In this document: positions 5,007 through 51,139 of the stretch, piece by piece
How positions within the stretch are numbered: the first letter of the stretch is position 1
How the letters are laid out: each line of letters starts with the position of its first letter
Source of the DNA: Escherichia coli
Lineage (GTDB): Bacteria > Pseudomonadota > Gammaproteobacteria > Enterobacterales > Enterobacteriaceae
Assembly (NCBI RefSeq): GCF_044324785.1
Contig: NZ_CP172129.1
Reading direction: 5' to 3' (one strand)
Length of the DNA: 64,000 nucleotides
Notes under the pieces: model-generated
The model's input: only the letters and a program-made list of their open reading frames with translations
Database searches by the model: none
Told to the model about the DNA's origin: nothing
Program-made: the position numbers and the translations under genes

Positions 5007-6041
5007 TTAAAGCTGTGCTGCCAGAGTTGATAATAATTGTTCTGTCTGTTGCCATGATATGCATTCATCAGTAACAGACTGACCATACTCTAGCGGAAAA
5101 CTATCGGATTGTTTTCCATCTTGTAAAAAGCTTTCCACCATAATGCCAGCTACATATCCTGGTATTTTTTTCCGATTATCTATAACTTGACGTGCAACGG
5201 AAATTTGCCGTTTAGCCACTTTACCGCTATTACCATGGCTACAATCAATTATCAGACGATGGTTAATACCCTCATCATGCATTAATTTCACTGCCTTAGT
5301 TATATCAGACAAACCATAGTTAGGTTCTCTACCTCCACGTAATATTAGATGTCCATGTGGATTGCCATCGGTTAATAGTGTAGATATACTATTTGTTAAA
5401 GATGTCATATATACAATATGTTGTTCACGGGCTGCAATAATAGCGTCAATAGCTAAGTTAATATTTCCATCAGTACTGTTTTTAAATCCAACTGGACAAT
5501 GTAAACCAGACGCAAGTTGACGATGCGTTTGTGATTCAGTGGTTCTGGCACCAATAGCACCCCAACATATTAAATCAGCAATATAGGGAGTAAGAAAAGG
5601 ATCGAGGAATTCTGTAGCGGTTGCGACACGCATCGTTGTGATTGAAGACAAACACTGGCGAGCATATCGTATCCCTTTCTCAACATCATAACTTCCATTT
5701 AGATCAGGATCGTGCATTATTCCCTTCCAGCCTTTACGGGTTCGAGGTTTCTCAAAATAAGTGCGCATTACAATGTACATTTTCGATAAGTACTTATTCT
5801 GTAATACGAACAATCGCTTCGCATAATCAACTGCGGCCTGAACGTCATGGATTGAGCATGGACCAACAATCACAAGTAAGCGAGGATCTTTTCCCAGCAA
5901 AATATTCGCTATAATATCTCGTTGCAGAGAGATCCATGTTACGGTTTCTTCCGATACTGCGATTTCTTTATGAATCTCGCCCACAGTGGGTAAACTGCCA
6001 AGCAACTTCCCGCGGTAGATTAATTTACTAGCTGACTGCAT
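5007..6041 (-). CDS. 3-deoxy-7-phosphoheptulonate (DAHP) synthase, AroF/G/H class (344 aa)
   Basis: Full-length similarity to class I DAHP synthases (KPRT, GARTTESQ, IMVESF-type motifs). Confidence 0.85.
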   Translation of the reverse strand: MQSASKLIYRGKLLGSLPTVGEIHKEIAVSEETVTWISLQRDIIANILLGKDPRLLVIVGPCSIHDVQAAVDYAKRLFVLQNKYLSKMYIVMRTYFEKPRTRKGWKGIMHDPDLNGSYDVEKGIRYARQCLSSITTMRVATATEFLDPFLTPYIADLICWGAIGARTTESQTHRQLASGLHCPVGFKNSTDGNINLAIDAIIAAREQHIVYMTSLTNSISTLLTDGNPHGHLILRGGREPNYGLSDITKAVKLMHDEGINHRLIIDCSHGNSGKVAKRQISVARQVIDNRKKIPGYVAGIMVESFLQDGKQSDSFPLEYGQSVTDECISWQQTEQLLSTLAAQL

Positions 6042-6252
6042 CTTGTCTCCTAAAAGCGCTATTTCAGACCATCAGTTGCACACAGTAGATGATAATGATA
6101 ATCATTTACTGTATAATTGGCAATATATGGGGATTCATAGTCATTTCTGAGATAATATACGTTAGGCCTTCTCTCCCGTACGGAAATCACTTGTTTTCCG
6201 TAAATTACCTGAATCTTAATCCCTGAGCTGCGGCTAGCTGTGGAACTCACAA

Positions 6253-6590
6253 AAGCTGACCGGGCCGTGGCACAGCCTCTCTGCTGGCAGAACAGCGTAC
6301 TGCAGAAGTCGTCGTACTGCCGCTGGTCCCGGCATCAGGTCTGCCCGCAGATGGCACTTCTGCCACTGATCTGCCGGTGGAGCTGAACGGCATGACATAT
6401 CAGGCCTGCCGTGGGGATTTTGTGGTGCGCCTCGACGGCAGCACCTGTCTGCAGTTATAGAATAAAGAAGGCGGGGAGGTACGCAGGGAGGGCGATCCGC
6501 TGGAAGTGGCGTAGTGGCTGTAGGCCTGTAATGATGCAGGAATAGAAGTTCGTGTACAGGTTAATGAAAGCATCACCCCGTAAAAACATG
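6253..6590 (+). pseudogene. Decayed copy of the 3' half of the ORF at 15720..16310, with in-frame stops and small deletions
   Basis: DNA near-identical to about 15950-16310 but interrupted by TAG codons (e.g. cagttatag, gtggcgtag). Confidence 0.6.
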
Positions 6591-6600
6591 CCGGCACGGT

Positions 6601-6909
6601 TTACACATCATTCCATGGTGGCAGCCGGTTAACTTTCCTGCGCCACCAGTGGAAAGAGGCCATGAGCAGTCCGAACAAAAAACCACTCGTGATACTTATA
6701 ATAATGGCCTCACCTGCTACCATTCCTGACGGCCCCCAGTACATAAACCACATTGCACATCCCCAGGAAATACCCCATAAGCCCCCCATCAGCAGCGTAA
6801 CCTGCCAGAACGGCATAAAGGGCAATGGCGGAAGCCGGATACCCAGCCGCCAGAGAATACGCAGCAGAGGAGGAGCATAATTACTCCGCCACATCTTTTT
6901 GCTGTCCAT
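6601..6909 (-). CDS. Small hydrophobic membrane protein (102 aa), paralogue of 16330..16587
   Basis: Hydrophobic segments; shares N- and C-terminal sequence with the 85-aa ORF at 16330..16587. Confidence 0.45.
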   Translation of the reverse strand: MDSKKMWRSNYAPPLLRILWRLGIRLPPLPFMPFWQVTLLMGGLWGISWGCAMWFMYWGPSGMVAGEAIIISITSGFLFGLLMASFHWWRRKVNRLPPWNDV

Positions 6910-16715: not shown

Positions 16716-17051
16716 ATGAACAGAAAATATTATTTTAATAATATGTGGTGGGGATGGGTGACGGGGGGATATATGCTGTATATGTCATGGGATTATGATT
16801 TTAAATACAGATTACTGTTCTGGTGTATTTCTCTCTGCGGAATGGTTTTGTATCCGGTTGCAAAATGGTATATTGAAGATACAGCTCTGAAATTTACCCG
16901 GCCTGATTTCTGGAACAGCGGTTTTTTTGCTGATACACCTGGAAAAATGGGATTGCTTGCTGTTTATACGGGTACTGTTTTCATATTATCTCTTCCGTTA
17001 AGTCTGATATATATTCTTTCTGTTATTATAAAAAGGCTGTCTGTAAGATAG
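16716..17051 (+). CDS. iia: Colicin Ia immunity protein (111 aa)
   Basis: 111-aa membrane protein MNRKYYFNNMWWGW..., convergent with and adjacent to the colicin Ia gene. Confidence 0.9.
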   Translation: MNRKYYFNNMWWGWVTGGYMLYMSWDYDFKYRLLFWCISLCGMVLYPVAKWYIEDTALKFTRPDFWNSGFFADTPGKMGLLAVYTGTVFILSLPLSLIYILSVIIKRLSVR

Positions 17052-17058
17052 ACAGCCT
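17034..17058. terminator. Hairpin ggctgtc-tgtaagata-gacagcc followed by a T-rich run, between convergent imm and cia
   Basis: 7-bp stem and 9-nt loop read directly. Confidence 0.45.
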
Positions 17059-17072
17059 GTCTTATATTTTAT

Positions 17073-18953
17073 TTAAATACCCCAGAACTTATTCGCTTTT
17101 TCCACAAGCGATTCATCAATCAGCGCACCGGTGACAGCCATCAGTAAACCATACCCGATAATGCCTAAAGCGCTTCCGGTAAGAATACTGAAGACCAGTG
17201 CAACAAGAGCCGTTGCGGCATTGCCTGCTATAATGGCTTCTGTTTTAACAAAAAGAGGACGCCAGTTCTCTGTCCGGACACCCTTACCAAACTCAGTGAT
17301 CCAGTCAGCAAGACTTGTAAATTTTCCTGCATATCCCAGTCCCCGACTGAATCTGTTCAGATTAGACGATATATCAGACAGCTTCACTGACTCAAGGGCT
17401 GCGGCAATCGCTGCACGATCTTTTGCATTAATTTTTTTGTTAATGTCAGCCCGGTACTTTTCATACGTTTTTAATGCCTCTTCAACATTACGTATTTTCT
17501 TCCCTTTAGCCTGCCCGGCCATCTCTCTGGCTAACTGCTCAGCTTTTGCACCATATTTTTCTGAAACTGATTTCAGGAACTCTGTTGTGAAATTAATTGC
17601 GTCTTTCGTTGCCTTCAGTTCATCCTGTTTTCTTTTCTCTTCCGCTATCTTCTGATTGATGCCGGCAAGCTGGTTACGGATATTCTCTTTTTCCTTCAAC
17701 AGGGCATTAAGAGCGTCATTTGCATGCTTTTGCTCATTTGTTCTGGCACTGAGGTTATTTCTCGCAGAATTTACCGCAGATTCAGCAGAGGTGATTTTAT
17801 TTCTGGCATCAAGCAATCTTTGCCGTAACTTATCCCATTCAGCAACTTCAGCATTATAAATTTTCTTGTCACCTTCCACATCCTCTGTCACCACCGGATT
17901 CCGGTCATTCAGAATATTGCGTTTATAGTCCAGACCGGAATGGGTCAGAAGATAATTCAGGTTTGCACGGTTATCGATGACTGCGCTGGTTGTGATTTTT
18001 ATCGTACCGGCAAATCTCGGATCACCGCTCACAACAATAGAATGATTTGTTGATGAACGCCCCGGGAATTTTTCAGGGGAAACTATCGTTTTGCCGTCAA
18101 GCGTGTTTTTCTGTTGCGTCAGCTGTTGCTCAGCTCTGGTTAATGCATTACGGGCCGTGTTAAGCGATTCCGTCACTGAACTGAGTTTATTCCGGGCCTC
18201 TGAAATGGCCCTGTCATTCCGTGTCTGCTGCCCGAGCAGACGGGCCTGTTGTGCATCAAGAACGGCAAGGGCTGCCCCGCCATTTTTTTCCAGCTCTGAC
18301 AACCGCGTGTCCAGAATACCTTTTCTGCGCTCGTATTCAGCAAGCATATCAGCGGCCTTCTTGTCTGCGTTCTGCGCATCCTTCTGCCGTTTTTCAGCCT
18401 GTTCGATTAACGACCTGGCCTCCCGGGGAGATATACGAAGAGAATCAGCATCAGCAAAGAGCATCCGGCTCTCTGTATGCAGCCGGAGGGCATCATATCC
18501 GGCGATTTCAGTACGGAATCCGTATTCTCTCAGCTCTGCCTGCAGGAGTCTGAACTCCTGTCGTGTAATATCAGCGGCATCTGCGTTTCCGGCACGGAGT
18601 GTTTTCAGTGTGTTTTCATCTTTTTCCCTTGCAGCAATCGCCGCAGAGAGGCGTTTTGCGGCTTCAGTACGCTTATTCTCATTCTCTTTCTGCTGCGCGC
18701 TGAGCGTCATTTTGTACGCTGTGATTTCCTTGTCCCTTTTTTCGATATCACTTCGGGTTGGGGAATCATCGACCCACTCGTTTCCGCCCCAGATGGTTTT
18801 GTTCCCGAAGGAACTCCATGCAGGCGGGGTACCATGAAAGACATCGACACGTGGAGGGTTTACATAAATATCAACGGCCATAATTTCATGGCCATCTGAA
18901 TCATACCCCAGCGATTCTGCACCGGGATTTGTAATACGTACAGGGTCAGACAT
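17073..18953 (-). CDS. cia: Colicin Ia (626 aa, pore-forming)
   Basis: 626-aa product MSDPVRITNPGAESLGYDSDGHEIMAVDIY... with C-terminal hydrophobic channel-forming hairpin. Confidence 0.95.
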   Translation of the reverse strand: MSDPVRITNPGAESLGYDSDGHEIMAVDIYVNPPRVDVFHGTPPAWSSFGNKTIWGGNEWVDDSPTRSDIEKRDKEITAYKMTLSAQQKENENKRTEAAKRLSAAIAAREKDENTLKTLRAGNADAADITRQEFRLLQAELREYGFRTEIAGYDALRLHTESRMLFADADSLRISPREARSLIEQAEKRQKDAQNADKKAADMLAEYERRKGILDTRLSELEKNGGAALAVLDAQQARLLGQQTRNDRAISEARNKLSSVTESLNTARNALTRAEQQLTQQKNTLDGKTIVSPEKFPGRSSTNHSIVVSGDPRFAGTIKITTSAVIDNRANLNYLLTHSGLDYKRNILNDRNPVVTEDVEGDKKIYNAEVAEWDKLRQRLLDARNKITSAESAVNSARNNLSARTNEQKHANDALNALLKEKENIRNQLAGINQKIAEEKRKQDELKATKDAINFTTEFLKSVSEKYGAKAEQLAREMAGQAKGKKIRNVEEALKTYEKYRADINKKINAKDRAAIAAALESVKLSDISSNLNRFSRGLGYAGKFTSLADWITEFGKGVRTENWRPLFVKTEAIIAGNAATALVALVFSILTGSALGIIGYGLLMAVTGALIDESLVEKANKFWGI

Positions 18954-48093: not shown

Positions 48094-48699
48094 CGTGAGA
48101 CTACGATTCCATTAATGCCTGCCAGTGAGTGTGTGGAACATATCTTGGCCAGTGGCTTGGTCTGTGATGTGCTGCGTATACCGGGTGAACCGCCCCGCCG
48201 CTTGTTTGACCGCTATATTCTGCGGGAGTTTTCTTGGAGGCACGGGATGAAATCCGCAGCATGGCGGATGCCCTGGCAAAAATCCGGAAATGATGACGAT
48301 GGCGGGGAAAATCCCCGCCTTTTTCCTGCCGGTCCCCGGACAGAGCACAAAGGAAGTCGCCGCCGGCTCCGCTTTACCCGGCCATGCGGAGCATGGCCTT
48401 GTGGGGGTTCAGTTATGTGGACGTCGAGTCGTGTGCGGGCTGTGCCGTGCCTCCATCTTAGCCGGGCTGGCGTTGATGCAAGCAACTGTCTTAATGGGAG
48501 GCGGTTATCTGAAAAAAGTACGGGATAATATTATGGAATCGCCCATCTCAAGCAAAAAACTGACTCGCTTCGATACTACGCTGACAGGCTGTTTTGAGCG
48601 AGATATCTCTCGTGTCGGGCATCGACATTTTAAATGATTCTAAATAATATGAGCAGGGTCAGTCTTATTAAAGATTAAAACACCGGATAACAAGTTTTA

Positions 48700-49281
48700 T
48701 TGATTATGGATGAAGAGAAAACTCGTGCTGAAGTGGCACACATAGAATTTATTTCATATGGTACGTCTCGAATTTTTGATAGGCGTATGAGATCCTTAGA
48801 CTGGAAGCGTAAGGTTGTCACCTTCCTTGGGGTCTTTGTTCCACTGATGATAGGTTGTGCAGTTTTATCATTCGGACTTGAAGCTCCATTTCTGCCGCTT
48901 TGCATCACAATTGCCGGTGTGGCAAGTATCATGCAATTGGGGTTCTCGCTGTGGTCTTTGGTTTCCGGATGGGATCGCTCATATAGTGATTGCATGGCTT
49001 CCGTTAAGGAAAATACAGCCATTTATAACCTAGCTGGTAGTGTTCGCAAGAAAATAGGTAAGCTTGACGAAGCCAAATTGGAAATTTTGATAGACGATTT
49101 GACGGAAAAATTTGAGCGAAGGGAGCAGGAAGACTTAACTTTGTGTGTGAGTGATAAAGAACTTCGTTATGCAAACCGTATGTCCTGTTTCTACTTCAAA
49201 AAAAAATGCCATATTTGTAATGTCGTTCCCCTAACTTTGAAACCGGGAAAATGTGTTTGTGATGGTTGTGGGAAATTTTAA
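48700..49281 (+). CDS. Hypothetical protein (193 aa) with two central hydrophobic helices and a C-terminal Cys cluster (CHIC...CVCDGC)
   Basis: Hydrophobic stretches VVTFLGVFVPLMIGCAVLSF and LPLCITIAGVASIMQLGFSLWSLV; region is AT-richer than its flanks. Confidence 0.5.
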   Translation: MIMDEEKTRAEVAHIEFISYGTSRIFDRRMRSLDWKRKVVTFLGVFVPLMIGCAVLSFGLEAPFLPLCITIAGVASIMQLGFSLWSLVSGWDRSYSDCMASVKENTAIYNLAGSVRKKIGKLDEAKLEILIDDLTEKFERREQEDLTLCVSDKELRYANRMSCFYFKKKCHICNVVPLTLKPGKCVCDGCGKF

Positions 49282-49293
49282 CAAGGAGAACAT

Positions 49294-49506
49294 ATGAGTA
49301 GTGCAAAAATTCTTAACGCTTACTTCGAGGCTTCTGAAGAAGATCGAAAGGAGTTCCTACGGGTTCTTAGTCATTTTTATAAGGATAACCGAAGAGTACC
49401 TCTGCAAGAGGGCATGGAGAGCTTTGCCGTCAATGAAAGCATCCGTAAATCGCAGTCAATTAACTTTGCCCCTATGCAAGGTGGGTGTCCACTCTGCGGC
49501 AAGTAA
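49294..49506 (+). CDS. Hypothetical small protein (70 aa) ending in CPLCGK
   Basis: 13 bp downstream of the previous ORF, same strand, with a ribosome-binding site (aaggag); likely co-transcribed. Confidence 0.4.
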   Translation: MSSAKILNAYFEASEEDRKEFLRVLSHFYKDNRRVPLQEGMESFAVNESIRKSQSINFAPMQGGCPLCGK

Positions 49507-49766
49507 CGACCAAAGCCGCTTGACTAGCGGCTTGATAGATTTCTTTATATTGTAACTAGCATCTTTACATCCTGTTAAAAAAGTGGCTATTGCCCGCTAT
49601 CTTGCAATTCTCCGTATTTGGTACAAAAACAGCCGAAAGCTGCACTATCAGCAGCTATGAGCAGCGGCCCCACTGACATCGCGGATGCTTTGTCCGTGGG
49701 AGGGCGGATCACAACAGGCCTGCGGGATAAGTTGTTCTTTCTGTCATTATGTAAAATGACCGGCAG

Positions 49767-50768
<1,002 letters not shown>

Positions 50769-51139
50769 TCAATCAACTGTACGGATTTGTGATGAGTGAC
50801 TCAGCTCATGCGCGGGACGCTTGCATGCGGGCTTAATACCCTCGGGTTCGCACGTGCTGCATGAGCTTTGCCAGACCTACAGATTCAGTTTATGCCATCT
50901 TCAAGATATAAGGATACGCTTCGCCGCTGCGGTCACCCGGTCCCTCCTTCCCGTCTGCCGTGATTTTCCGGTCGTTTACCCGCTCAGATTTCGCGGTCTC
51001 ACCCTCCAACTCCCGCCAGCCGTGTGTGTCAGGCTGCGGCTTCCCTTGCGCCCTTTGCATCCCCGCCTTATCGCCCGGCTTTTATGGAGGCACGGCACAG
51101 CCCGGTGTCGCGGAATATGTGAACAACGGAGGAAATCCC

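Follow-up and report, generated by a model that had tools for sequence, protein, structure and literature searches.

The plasmid DNA of Escherichia coli analysed here (contig NZ_CP172129.1 of assembly GCF_044324785.1; 64,000 nucleotides, referred to as the window) carries a compact cassette of two genes on the plus strand (48692-49548). This cassette consists of a short leader, a gene for a protein with two transmembrane (TM) helices (2TM protein; 48706-49281; 191 amino acids, aa), which has a predicted SLATT fold and belongs to the family TIGR04402/PF27874 (Mob_CxxC_CxxC), a ribosome-binding site (AAGGAG; 49283-49288, read from the sequence 5 nt 5' of the partner ATG), a gene for a soluble 70-aa partner with the C-terminus CPLCGK (49294-49506), and a terminator-like hairpin. 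Two open reading frames (ORFs) had been described in an initial annotation of this locus, and both exist where it had placed them. The 193 aa given then for the large ORF apply to a TTG start (48700-49281); the true start is likely the ATG at 48706, which matches the 191 aa of RefSeq WP_000343071.1. Similarly, the tight linkage of the genes was confirmed, with 12 nt instead of 13 bp between the stop codon of the 2TM gene and the partner ATG, the AAGGAG sequence lying within this gap. The pair is flanked, as had been described, by sopC and an IS110-family element, the upstream flank comprising SopA, SopB, and the 43-bp sopC repeats. Its AT-richness relative to these flanks was also borne out, with a GC content of 41.5% (48650-49550) versus 52.4% in the sopC flank, 50.1% in the IS110 region, and 52.0% in the whole window. 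The terminator-like hairpin, AAGCCGCT-tgact-AGCGGCTT (49513-49533), was found by reading the sequence and is followed by a T-rich stretch (the whole feature covering 49513-49548, plus strand); it ends with the conserved cassette at 49548. It was not called in a consensus scan, because its T tract is weak.

Pairing and mobility of the cassette

Alignment of the window with a chromosomal copy in Franconibacter/Enterobacter pulveris gave 81.6% identity over 858 nt, and this homology was confined to 48692-49548, a block made up of the two genes, a leader of about 14 nt, and the terminator hairpin. The ratio of nonsynonymous to synonymous substitution rates (dN/dS) against the Franconibacter copy amounted to 0.058 (2TM gene) and 0.041 (partner gene), indicating that both genes are under strong purifying selection. 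Judged from these sequences, both ORFs are taken to be real genes, far beyond chance. A partner-type ORF (62-75 aa, of matching architecture) was present directly 3' of the 2TM gene in 21 out of 22 loci retrieved with the 2TM protein, with a gap of 2-21 nt or an overlap of 4-29 nt, and translation of the partner is probably coupled to that of the 2TM gene. The pairing spans Pseudomonadota, Actinomycetota, and Bacteroidota. Indeed, paired loci were retrieved from IncF plasmids (including that of the window), from Pantoea and other lambdoid prophages, from Franconibacter, Vibrio, Duganella, and proteobacterial metagenome-assembled genomes (MAGs), from metagenomic contigs and two viral contigs, and from two Rhodococcus plasmids, two Streptomyces plasmids, and one Flavobacterium plasmid. 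The sole unpaired locus was a chromosomal copy in Photobacterium lutimaris, 3' of which lies a LysR gene. In the reverse look-up, which started from four divergent partners, a PF27874 gene was found directly 5' on every contig that reached far enough. These pairing statistics refer to about 26 loci, the genome scan having yielded seven loci and the viral scan two; the scans were limited by the sensitivity of the search patterns, and the alignment of 118 sequences was too diverse for a pattern search. Furthermore, the pairwise identities of the 2TM protein and its partner were correlated (r = 0.83; 153 locus pairs), and no third gene was common to the loci within 4 kb on either side (18 independent loci).

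In Vibrio splendidus, the pair corresponds exactly to one integron cassette in an array of at least 11 attC-type repeats, two of which (5794-5917 and 6778-6870) bracket the genes (5989-6573 and 6581-6778). An attC-bounded cassette was found at this locus only, the window copy lying outside any integron. The confined homology, the pairing, and the integron cassette together indicate that the pair represents one mobile unit of about 860 bp. The initial annotation had proposed that the pair is acquired cargo, and this is supported by the limits of the homology to the chromosomal copy (48692-49548), by the absence of the pair from classical F, as established by BLAST, and by the occurrence of the same unit in prophages, plasmids, islands resembling integrative and conjugative elements, and an integron cassette. 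It had also allowed that the ORFs might be ordinary F-plasmid housekeeping genes or might not be conserved as a pair; the absence from classical F and the 21 paired loci speak otherwise. Gene tables do not always reflect the pair. On the Rhodococcus plasmids, the partner ORF is intact but missing from the gene tables (L006, 5503-5715; L042, 3060-3275), and both genes are missing from that of a Streptomyces californicus plasmid (L044, 2501-3300), where the ORFs are intact too. The partner family is systematically under-annotated.

The family occurs on IncF plasmids, in lambdoid prophages, on elements with a type IV secretion system, on actinobacterial and Flavobacterium plasmids, and in the integron cassette, and its neighbours vary from context to context. 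In prophages, the pair occupies early-region positions next to cI, recT, xis-int, and Dam. Its neighbours are KAP NTPase, ArdC, and CcdAB in Dickeya, and Hypoth_Ymh, PIN7, and NUDIX on metagenomic contigs. Three partner-first loci have HsdR, an AAA-S8 protease, an integrase, and MobA; HigB, Hok, and H-NS; and haemolysin, IS91/IS110, and TacAT, respectively. At one locus, an ATPase of the AriA/PtuA/AbiL type lies directly 3' of the pair. Such neighbourhoods are typical of mobile, defence-rich regions. On one viral contig (L021), an ORF of 215 aa (5229-5876) located about 2.7 kb 3' of the pair has a hydrophobic hairpin at its centre and may encode a further small membrane protein involved in conflict.

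Among 5,426 complete E. coli genomes, 336 (about 6%) carried the cassette, and 346 of the 349 copies were located on plasmids, all copies being at least 99% identical. The related IncF/ColV-type plasmids share the order sopA, sopB, sopC, a GC-rich hypothetical ORF, the pair, insertion sequence (IS) elements, the leading region (DUF3560, methyltransferase, ssb, parB-like, psiB, psiA, and hok), oriT, and traM. The distance of the pair from traM is about 13.5 kb, and its direction is that of the leading genes. The frequencies of intact and disrupted copies were estimated from evenly spaced samples of the hit lists. About half of the sampled copies were intact, and about 46% contained the same IS1 insertion, or deletion derivatives of it, with a truncated 2TM protein. 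The insertion site, located from BLAST break points and annotations, corresponds to 49028-49037 of the window, whose own copy is intact. As the IS1-containing copies share one site and at least 99% identity, a single insertion event followed by clonal spread is indicated. Frequent IS1 disruption was therefore rejected as a signal of counter-selection. The insertion leaves a stub of about 111 aa, which is still named 'mobilome CxxCx(11)CxxC protein' in RefSeq; approximately 38-40% of the carriers have kept this stub alone, apparently after IS1-mediated deletion of the remainder. In about 3% of the sampled copies, from plasmids of China and Germany, an IS3 element lies within the partner gene and the 2TM gene is intact. 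The approximate position of this insertion, around codon 35 (49395-49399), follows from matches restricted to query positions 1-698, and the RefSeq annotation of these plasmids lists the intact 191-aa WP_000343071.1 followed by an IS3 transposase. The N-terminal helical module is preserved in the IS3-truncated partner. Natural disruption of either gene is tolerated.

The two-transmembrane protein and its small partner

The 2TM protein matched the NCBIfam family TIGR04402 ('mobilome CxxCx(11)CxxC protein') over its full length (E-value 8.7e-55; 185.7 bits against a cutoff of 70), with residues 10-193 aligned to positions 2-180 of the 180-position profile (179/180). PF27874, a recent Pfam family that is the counterpart of TIGR04402, is recorded on all close homologues, although a local Pfam-A scan gave no match for the window protein. 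An exhaustive profile search gave 442 representative clusters at 50% identity for this family, the members of which are nearly all single-domain proteins of 180-210 aa. The profile searches proposed in the initial annotation, according to which neither protein could be assigned to a named family, thus placed the large protein in TIGR04402/PF27874 and left the partner without a family, PADLOC matching neither of them.

Two hydrophobic helices had been proposed for the large protein, and hydropathy analysis indeed revealed a single hydrophobic block (residues ~37-86) with a short acidic loop (FGLEAPFL), the N-terminal flank of which is basic (7 K/R versus 2 D/E). Hydropathy, conservation, and the AlphaFold2 model agree on a helical hairpin (48814-48963, plus strand) with TM1 at residues ~37-57 and TM2 at ~62-86. 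The AlphaFold2 model, obtained with a 118-member alignment, had a predicted local distance difference test (pLDDT) score of 96 and a predicted template modelling (pTM) score of 0.87. It displays helices 3-56 and 63-87 as a hairpin, three further helices, and a C-terminal zinc ribbon; the long N-terminal helix continues into TM1, and the three helices after TM2 are predicted to be cytoplasmic. The ribbon involves four cysteine residues (C168, C171, C185, and C188 in the 191-aa numbering; 49207-49278, plus strand), which were the sole invariant columns in the alignment of 118 diverse homologues. Near-invariant residues are P46 and G50 in TM1, Q77 in TM2, W83 in the hairpin, and W89, D143, E152, R154, and R158. 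The motif CxxC-x9-14-CxxC was present in 115 out of 123 full-length representatives. The cysteine pattern C-x2-C...C-x-C-x2-C read earlier in the window protein is present as CHIC-x11-C-x-CDGC, an additional cysteine giving C-x-C-x2-C in the clade to which this protein belongs.

The 2TM protein is predicted to reside in the inner membrane, with its N- and C-terminal helices and the Zn(Cys)4 ribbon directed towards the cytoplasm. This orientation is based on the need of Cys4 zinc sites for a reducing cytoplasm, as well as on the basic N-flank and the acidic loop. A two-TM hairpin flanked by N- and C-terminal helices, which constitutes the SLATT fold, is present in the model. Foldseek agrees with this assignment, and some family members are already labelled SLATT or DUF4231 in UniProt. 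SLATT membership by sequence was rejected, as Pfam scans of the 118 members returned sub-threshold matches only, and since the SLATT sequence profiles miss the family, its placement holds at the level of the fold. On this model-based ground, the family is best described as a distinct branch of the SLATT superfamily with an added zinc ribbon.

The 70-aa partner is soluble, as judged from hydropathy. It was unmatched in Pfam, NCBIfam, PADLOC, PHROGs, and PDB sequence searches, so that a direct family assignment was rejected, and it is called 'hypothetical' in every source checked for the window protein. The one similarity noted is with the CxxC knuckle that opens C2H2 zinc fingers; weak matches to helix-turn-helix proteins all had E-values above 0.7, and no DNA-binding domain was detected. 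Alignment of divergent partners revealed three parts, namely an N-terminal amphipathic two-helix module (consensus ...VL-x-G-F-x-x-L-x-x-x-E-x-x-E-F...), a variable linker, and an invariant extreme C-terminus ([I/L]-x-[F/L]-[G/A]-P-x3-5-C-x-x-C-G-[K/R]-stop), which in the window partner reads INFAP-x4-CPxCGK-stop. The sequence CxxCG[K/R] was the exact end of 39 out of 44 partner homologues, the exceptions being frameshifted or truncated fragments and one C-terminally extended protein. Beyond the CxxC, no other cysteine or histidine is conserved among the aligned partners, which suggests a half zinc site, the other two ligands of which come from another chain. One homologue of 66 aa (P0179) has been misnamed 'acyl-coenzyme A synthetase/AMP-(fatty) acid ligase' by the Joint Genome Institute (JGI), an evident error.

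A natural fusion links the partner to the 2TM protein. In one lineage (P0085), found in two independent samples, the N-terminal module of the partner, without the rest of it, is fused in-frame to the C-terminus of the 2TM protein, and a complete separate partner gene still follows 3'. This fusion indicates that the N-terminal module is physically located at the cytoplasmic end of the 2TM protein, and in a linker-fused AlphaFold co-fold this module had pLDDT values of 77-96. A second candidate fusion of 260 aa (P0083; JGI 3300057055) was rejected, as the tryptophan at the junction is the TGA stop codon of the 2TM gene read as Trp by the gene caller; under translation table 11, this locus is an ordinary pair. 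Directly 5' of the fusion-variant pair lies a gene resembling dCTP deaminases and dUTPases (PF22769 DCD; L040, 1411-2091). As dCTP deaminases are known anti-phage genes, this locus may represent another defence-island context.

Possible function and alternative explanations

The pair may be interpreted as a self-contained, horizontally mobile two-gene conflict cassette, composed of a conditional membrane effector and a small regulator, an interpretation to which a probability of roughly 0.5 was assigned and for which the conflict function can be inferred. The closest functional analogues would be the SLATT effectors, which share the fold and act with another regulatory partner. SLATT proteins serve in type I CBASS, RADAR, DRT3, DRT10/UG17, and AbiA-type systems. 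They are predicted pore-forming effectors; one of them is required for DRT10 defence, and in CBASS, RADAR, and DRT3 others have an effector or accessory role. How they become activated is explicitly named as a central question still to be answered (bioRxiv 10.64898/2026.04.29.721553). The 2TM protein would, by analogy, be a conditional membrane-permeabilising or depolarising effector that, once activated, would arrest or kill the cell, resulting in abortive-infection-type defence or in competition to the benefit of the carrying plasmid, prophage, or integron. The 2TM protein differs from the SLATT proteins in that it is not detected by SLATT hidden Markov models, bears a C-terminal Cys4 zinc ribbon, and has no linked cyclase, SLOG, reverse transcriptase, or other signal generator, its constant neighbour being a protein of about 70 aa. 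The characterised SLATT cases all depend on an enzyme producing a nucleotide or DNA signal, whereas here only a 70-residue protein is present. As no such enzyme is encoded alongside, the small partner would have to gate or sense. It may dock on the cytoplasmic bundle of the effector via its N-terminal module, and its terminal CxxC knuckle may form an intermolecular zinc bridge, either between partners or between partner and effector. In this way, the partner would control effector oligomerisation by gating or sensing, instead of acting as a plain antitoxin. A more specific and more tentative proposal is that the cassette is an enzyme-free, minimal SLATT immune or competition system, in which a sensor of about 70 residues gates a zinc-ribbon SLATT pore through a Zn(Cys)4 bridge.

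Several results weigh against the interpretation as a conflict cassette. None of the SLATT_1-6, DUF4231, or NCBIfam SLATT profiles matched the window protein (Pfam, E-value ≤ 10; NCBIfam, E-value ≤ 1), and among the 118 members only four matched DUF4231 and three SLATT_4, all below the threshold (1e-3 < E < 0.1). No family of PADLOC-DB v2, which includes RexAB, CBASS 2TM effectors, RADAR accessories, and PDC candidates, was hit by either protein at an E-value ≤ 1. No enzyme generating a nucleotide or DNA signal occurred within 4 kb of the pair in the 18 loci, unlike in every characterised SLATT system. A tblastn search of 50,697 sequenced phage genomes was negative, the prophage contexts having been taken from bacterial contigs. 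Furthermore, no paper was found under the TIGR04402/PF27874 family names or accessions, and the high frequency of IS1 disruption is uninformative about selection. Finally, the co-fold gives per-residue confidence only and the conserved tail of the partner had a pLDDT below 50 in it, which makes the docking and the zinc bridge conjecture.

A classical toxin-antitoxin (TA) or post-segregational killing system, in which the 2TM protein would be a constitutive membrane toxin restrained by a labile small antitoxin, so that loss of the element kills the cell, was considered unlikely. A compact two-gene operon on mobile elements would suit such a system, as would its location near partition loci and TA modules (sopABC in the window; HigB, Hok, CcdAB, TacAT, and PIN elsewhere); in addition, integron arrays are known to contain TA cassettes, and copies in which IS1 interrupts the putative toxin gene are common and tolerated. 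However, in plasmids of two countries the IS3-interrupted partner stands beside an intact 2TM gene, albeit with the N-terminal module of the truncated partner retained, and Photobacterium lutimaris has a solo 2TM gene. Both cases make a constitutive toxin that depends on an essential antitoxin less plausible: since plasmids persist with IS3 in the partner gene, and a solo effector exists, the 2TM effector is probably not constitutively lethal. A toxin-first gene order, a smaller second gene, and a partner without a DNA-binding domain are also atypical for type II TA systems. Among membrane-toxin systems, those of the hok/sok type likewise involve a small, potentially growth-arresting inner-membrane protein that is encoded on plasmids near partition or leading genes. 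However, their toxins are tiny single-TM peptides under antisense RNA control, whereas the pair comprises a structured 191-aa protein and a protein partner that is found across phyla and whose knockout is tolerated. RexAB of phage lambda and Sucellos (SclAB, from a Vibrio cholerae integron cassette) are likewise two-gene prophage or integron modules of a membrane protein and a cytoplasmic partner, but their proteins are unrelated to the present pair of a 70-aa partner and a two-TM protein with a zinc ribbon; RexA has about 280 aa and RexB four TM helices. Sucellos is described as RexAB-like in structure; in modules of this type, the membrane protein is thought to collapse the membrane potential, and both genes are needed (bioRxiv 10.1101/2024.07.02.601686). 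Being described as RexAB-like and hence of a different family, it was rejected as the identical system.

An even less probable role of the pair is in establishment or exclusion, the membrane protein acting on DNA traffic at the inner membrane, either by excluding phage or plasmid DNA or by protecting the incoming element, and the zinc ribbon touching nucleic acid or the entry machinery. The distal end of the leading region is where the pair is found on IncF plasmids, co-directional with ssb, psiB, and the anti-restriction genes; the genes of this region have a common orientation, and anti-defence and TA functions are over-represented among them (PMC11541004). The pair is, however, co-oriented with sopAB too, so that orientation does not discriminate; in addition, it lies about 13.5 kb from oriT with IS elements in between, and the leading-region position is not conserved, the pair also occurring in integron arrays, on chromosomal islands, and beside EF-G. 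Prophage copies at early-left or moron positions by cI, recT, and xis-int, which are common sites of exclusion genes, and the proximity of ArdC in Dickeya fit such a role as well, but the SLATT fold is known from effectors and not from exclusion proteins. A non-conflict accessory function, such as that of a membrane-anchored zinc, redox, or metal-handling pair riding on mobile elements, is highly improbable. It would account for the conserved cysteine motifs of both proteins, the CPxC motif such as that of the partner resembling redox and metal-binding motifs in general, and for the lack of a match to any defence model. Yet the fold matches SLATT effectors specifically, the pair occurs in mobile, variable contexts only and is missing from core genomes, and no transporter, reductase, or metal-regulon gene was linked to it within 4 kb in the 18 loci.

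If the cassette is indeed a minimal conflict system of this kind, a system of about 860 bp spreads as moron, plasmid cargo, and integron cassette across at least three phyla and offers the simplest available model of how a SLATT effector is switched on. Its regulatory logic would then come down to the interaction of two proteins, amenable to direct study in E. coli, where the cassette is native to IncF virulence and resistance plasmids and natural knockouts of each gene exist. Any role in phage defence, plasmid competition, or plasmid stability would bear on ColV/IncF plasmid biology. In the 2TM protein, the length, the two TM helices, and the C-terminal CxxC-x11-CxxC are those of TIGR04402/PF27874, but this family is a catalogue entry of uncharacterised function, and none of the libraries searched models the downstream partner. 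Neither the strictly conserved mini-partner with its half zinc site nor the spread of the pair as one cassette across three phyla appears to have been described in the sources searched. An annotation gap is exposed, with a partner that lacks a family model and has been missed in several genomes.

Sequences flanking the cassette

The consensus scan returned a candidate sigma-70 promoter (TCGACA-17-TAATAT; 48622-48650, plus strand; 9/12 matches) 5' of and outside the conserved cassette; as it is not conserved with the Franconibacter copy, it would be supplied by the context at best. The top promoter-like site of the region (TTAACA-18-TACAAT; 10/12 matches) was found on the minus strand (49549-49578), just past the end of the cassette; it faces the cassette, running antisense to the partner gene, and could represent an antisense promoter or one formed at an IS junction. 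A GC-rich (about 55-59%) ORF of 115 aa (48290-48637, plus strand; RefSeq hypothetical protein WP_001350917.1) is situated between sopC and the cassette; its DNA is unmatched in classical F and falls outside the conserved cassette. On the other side, the IS110-family element is ISEc32, whose transposase gene is located on the minus strand (49767-50738). The DNA 3' of the cassette (49560-50900) is an IS hot spot, which is occupied by ISEc32 in the window and by an IS3-family element in pMS8345B (16986-18757), the latter plasmid being without the anti-restriction and DUF1380 genes. Finally, a 5-kb contig (SFGN01000139.1) assigned to 'MAG: Lachnospiraceae bacterium' is 99.9% identical to the E. 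coli IncF region comprising sopC, the cassette, and ISEc32, and is almost certainly a mis-binned enterobacterial plasmid fragment instead of Lachnospiraceae DNA.

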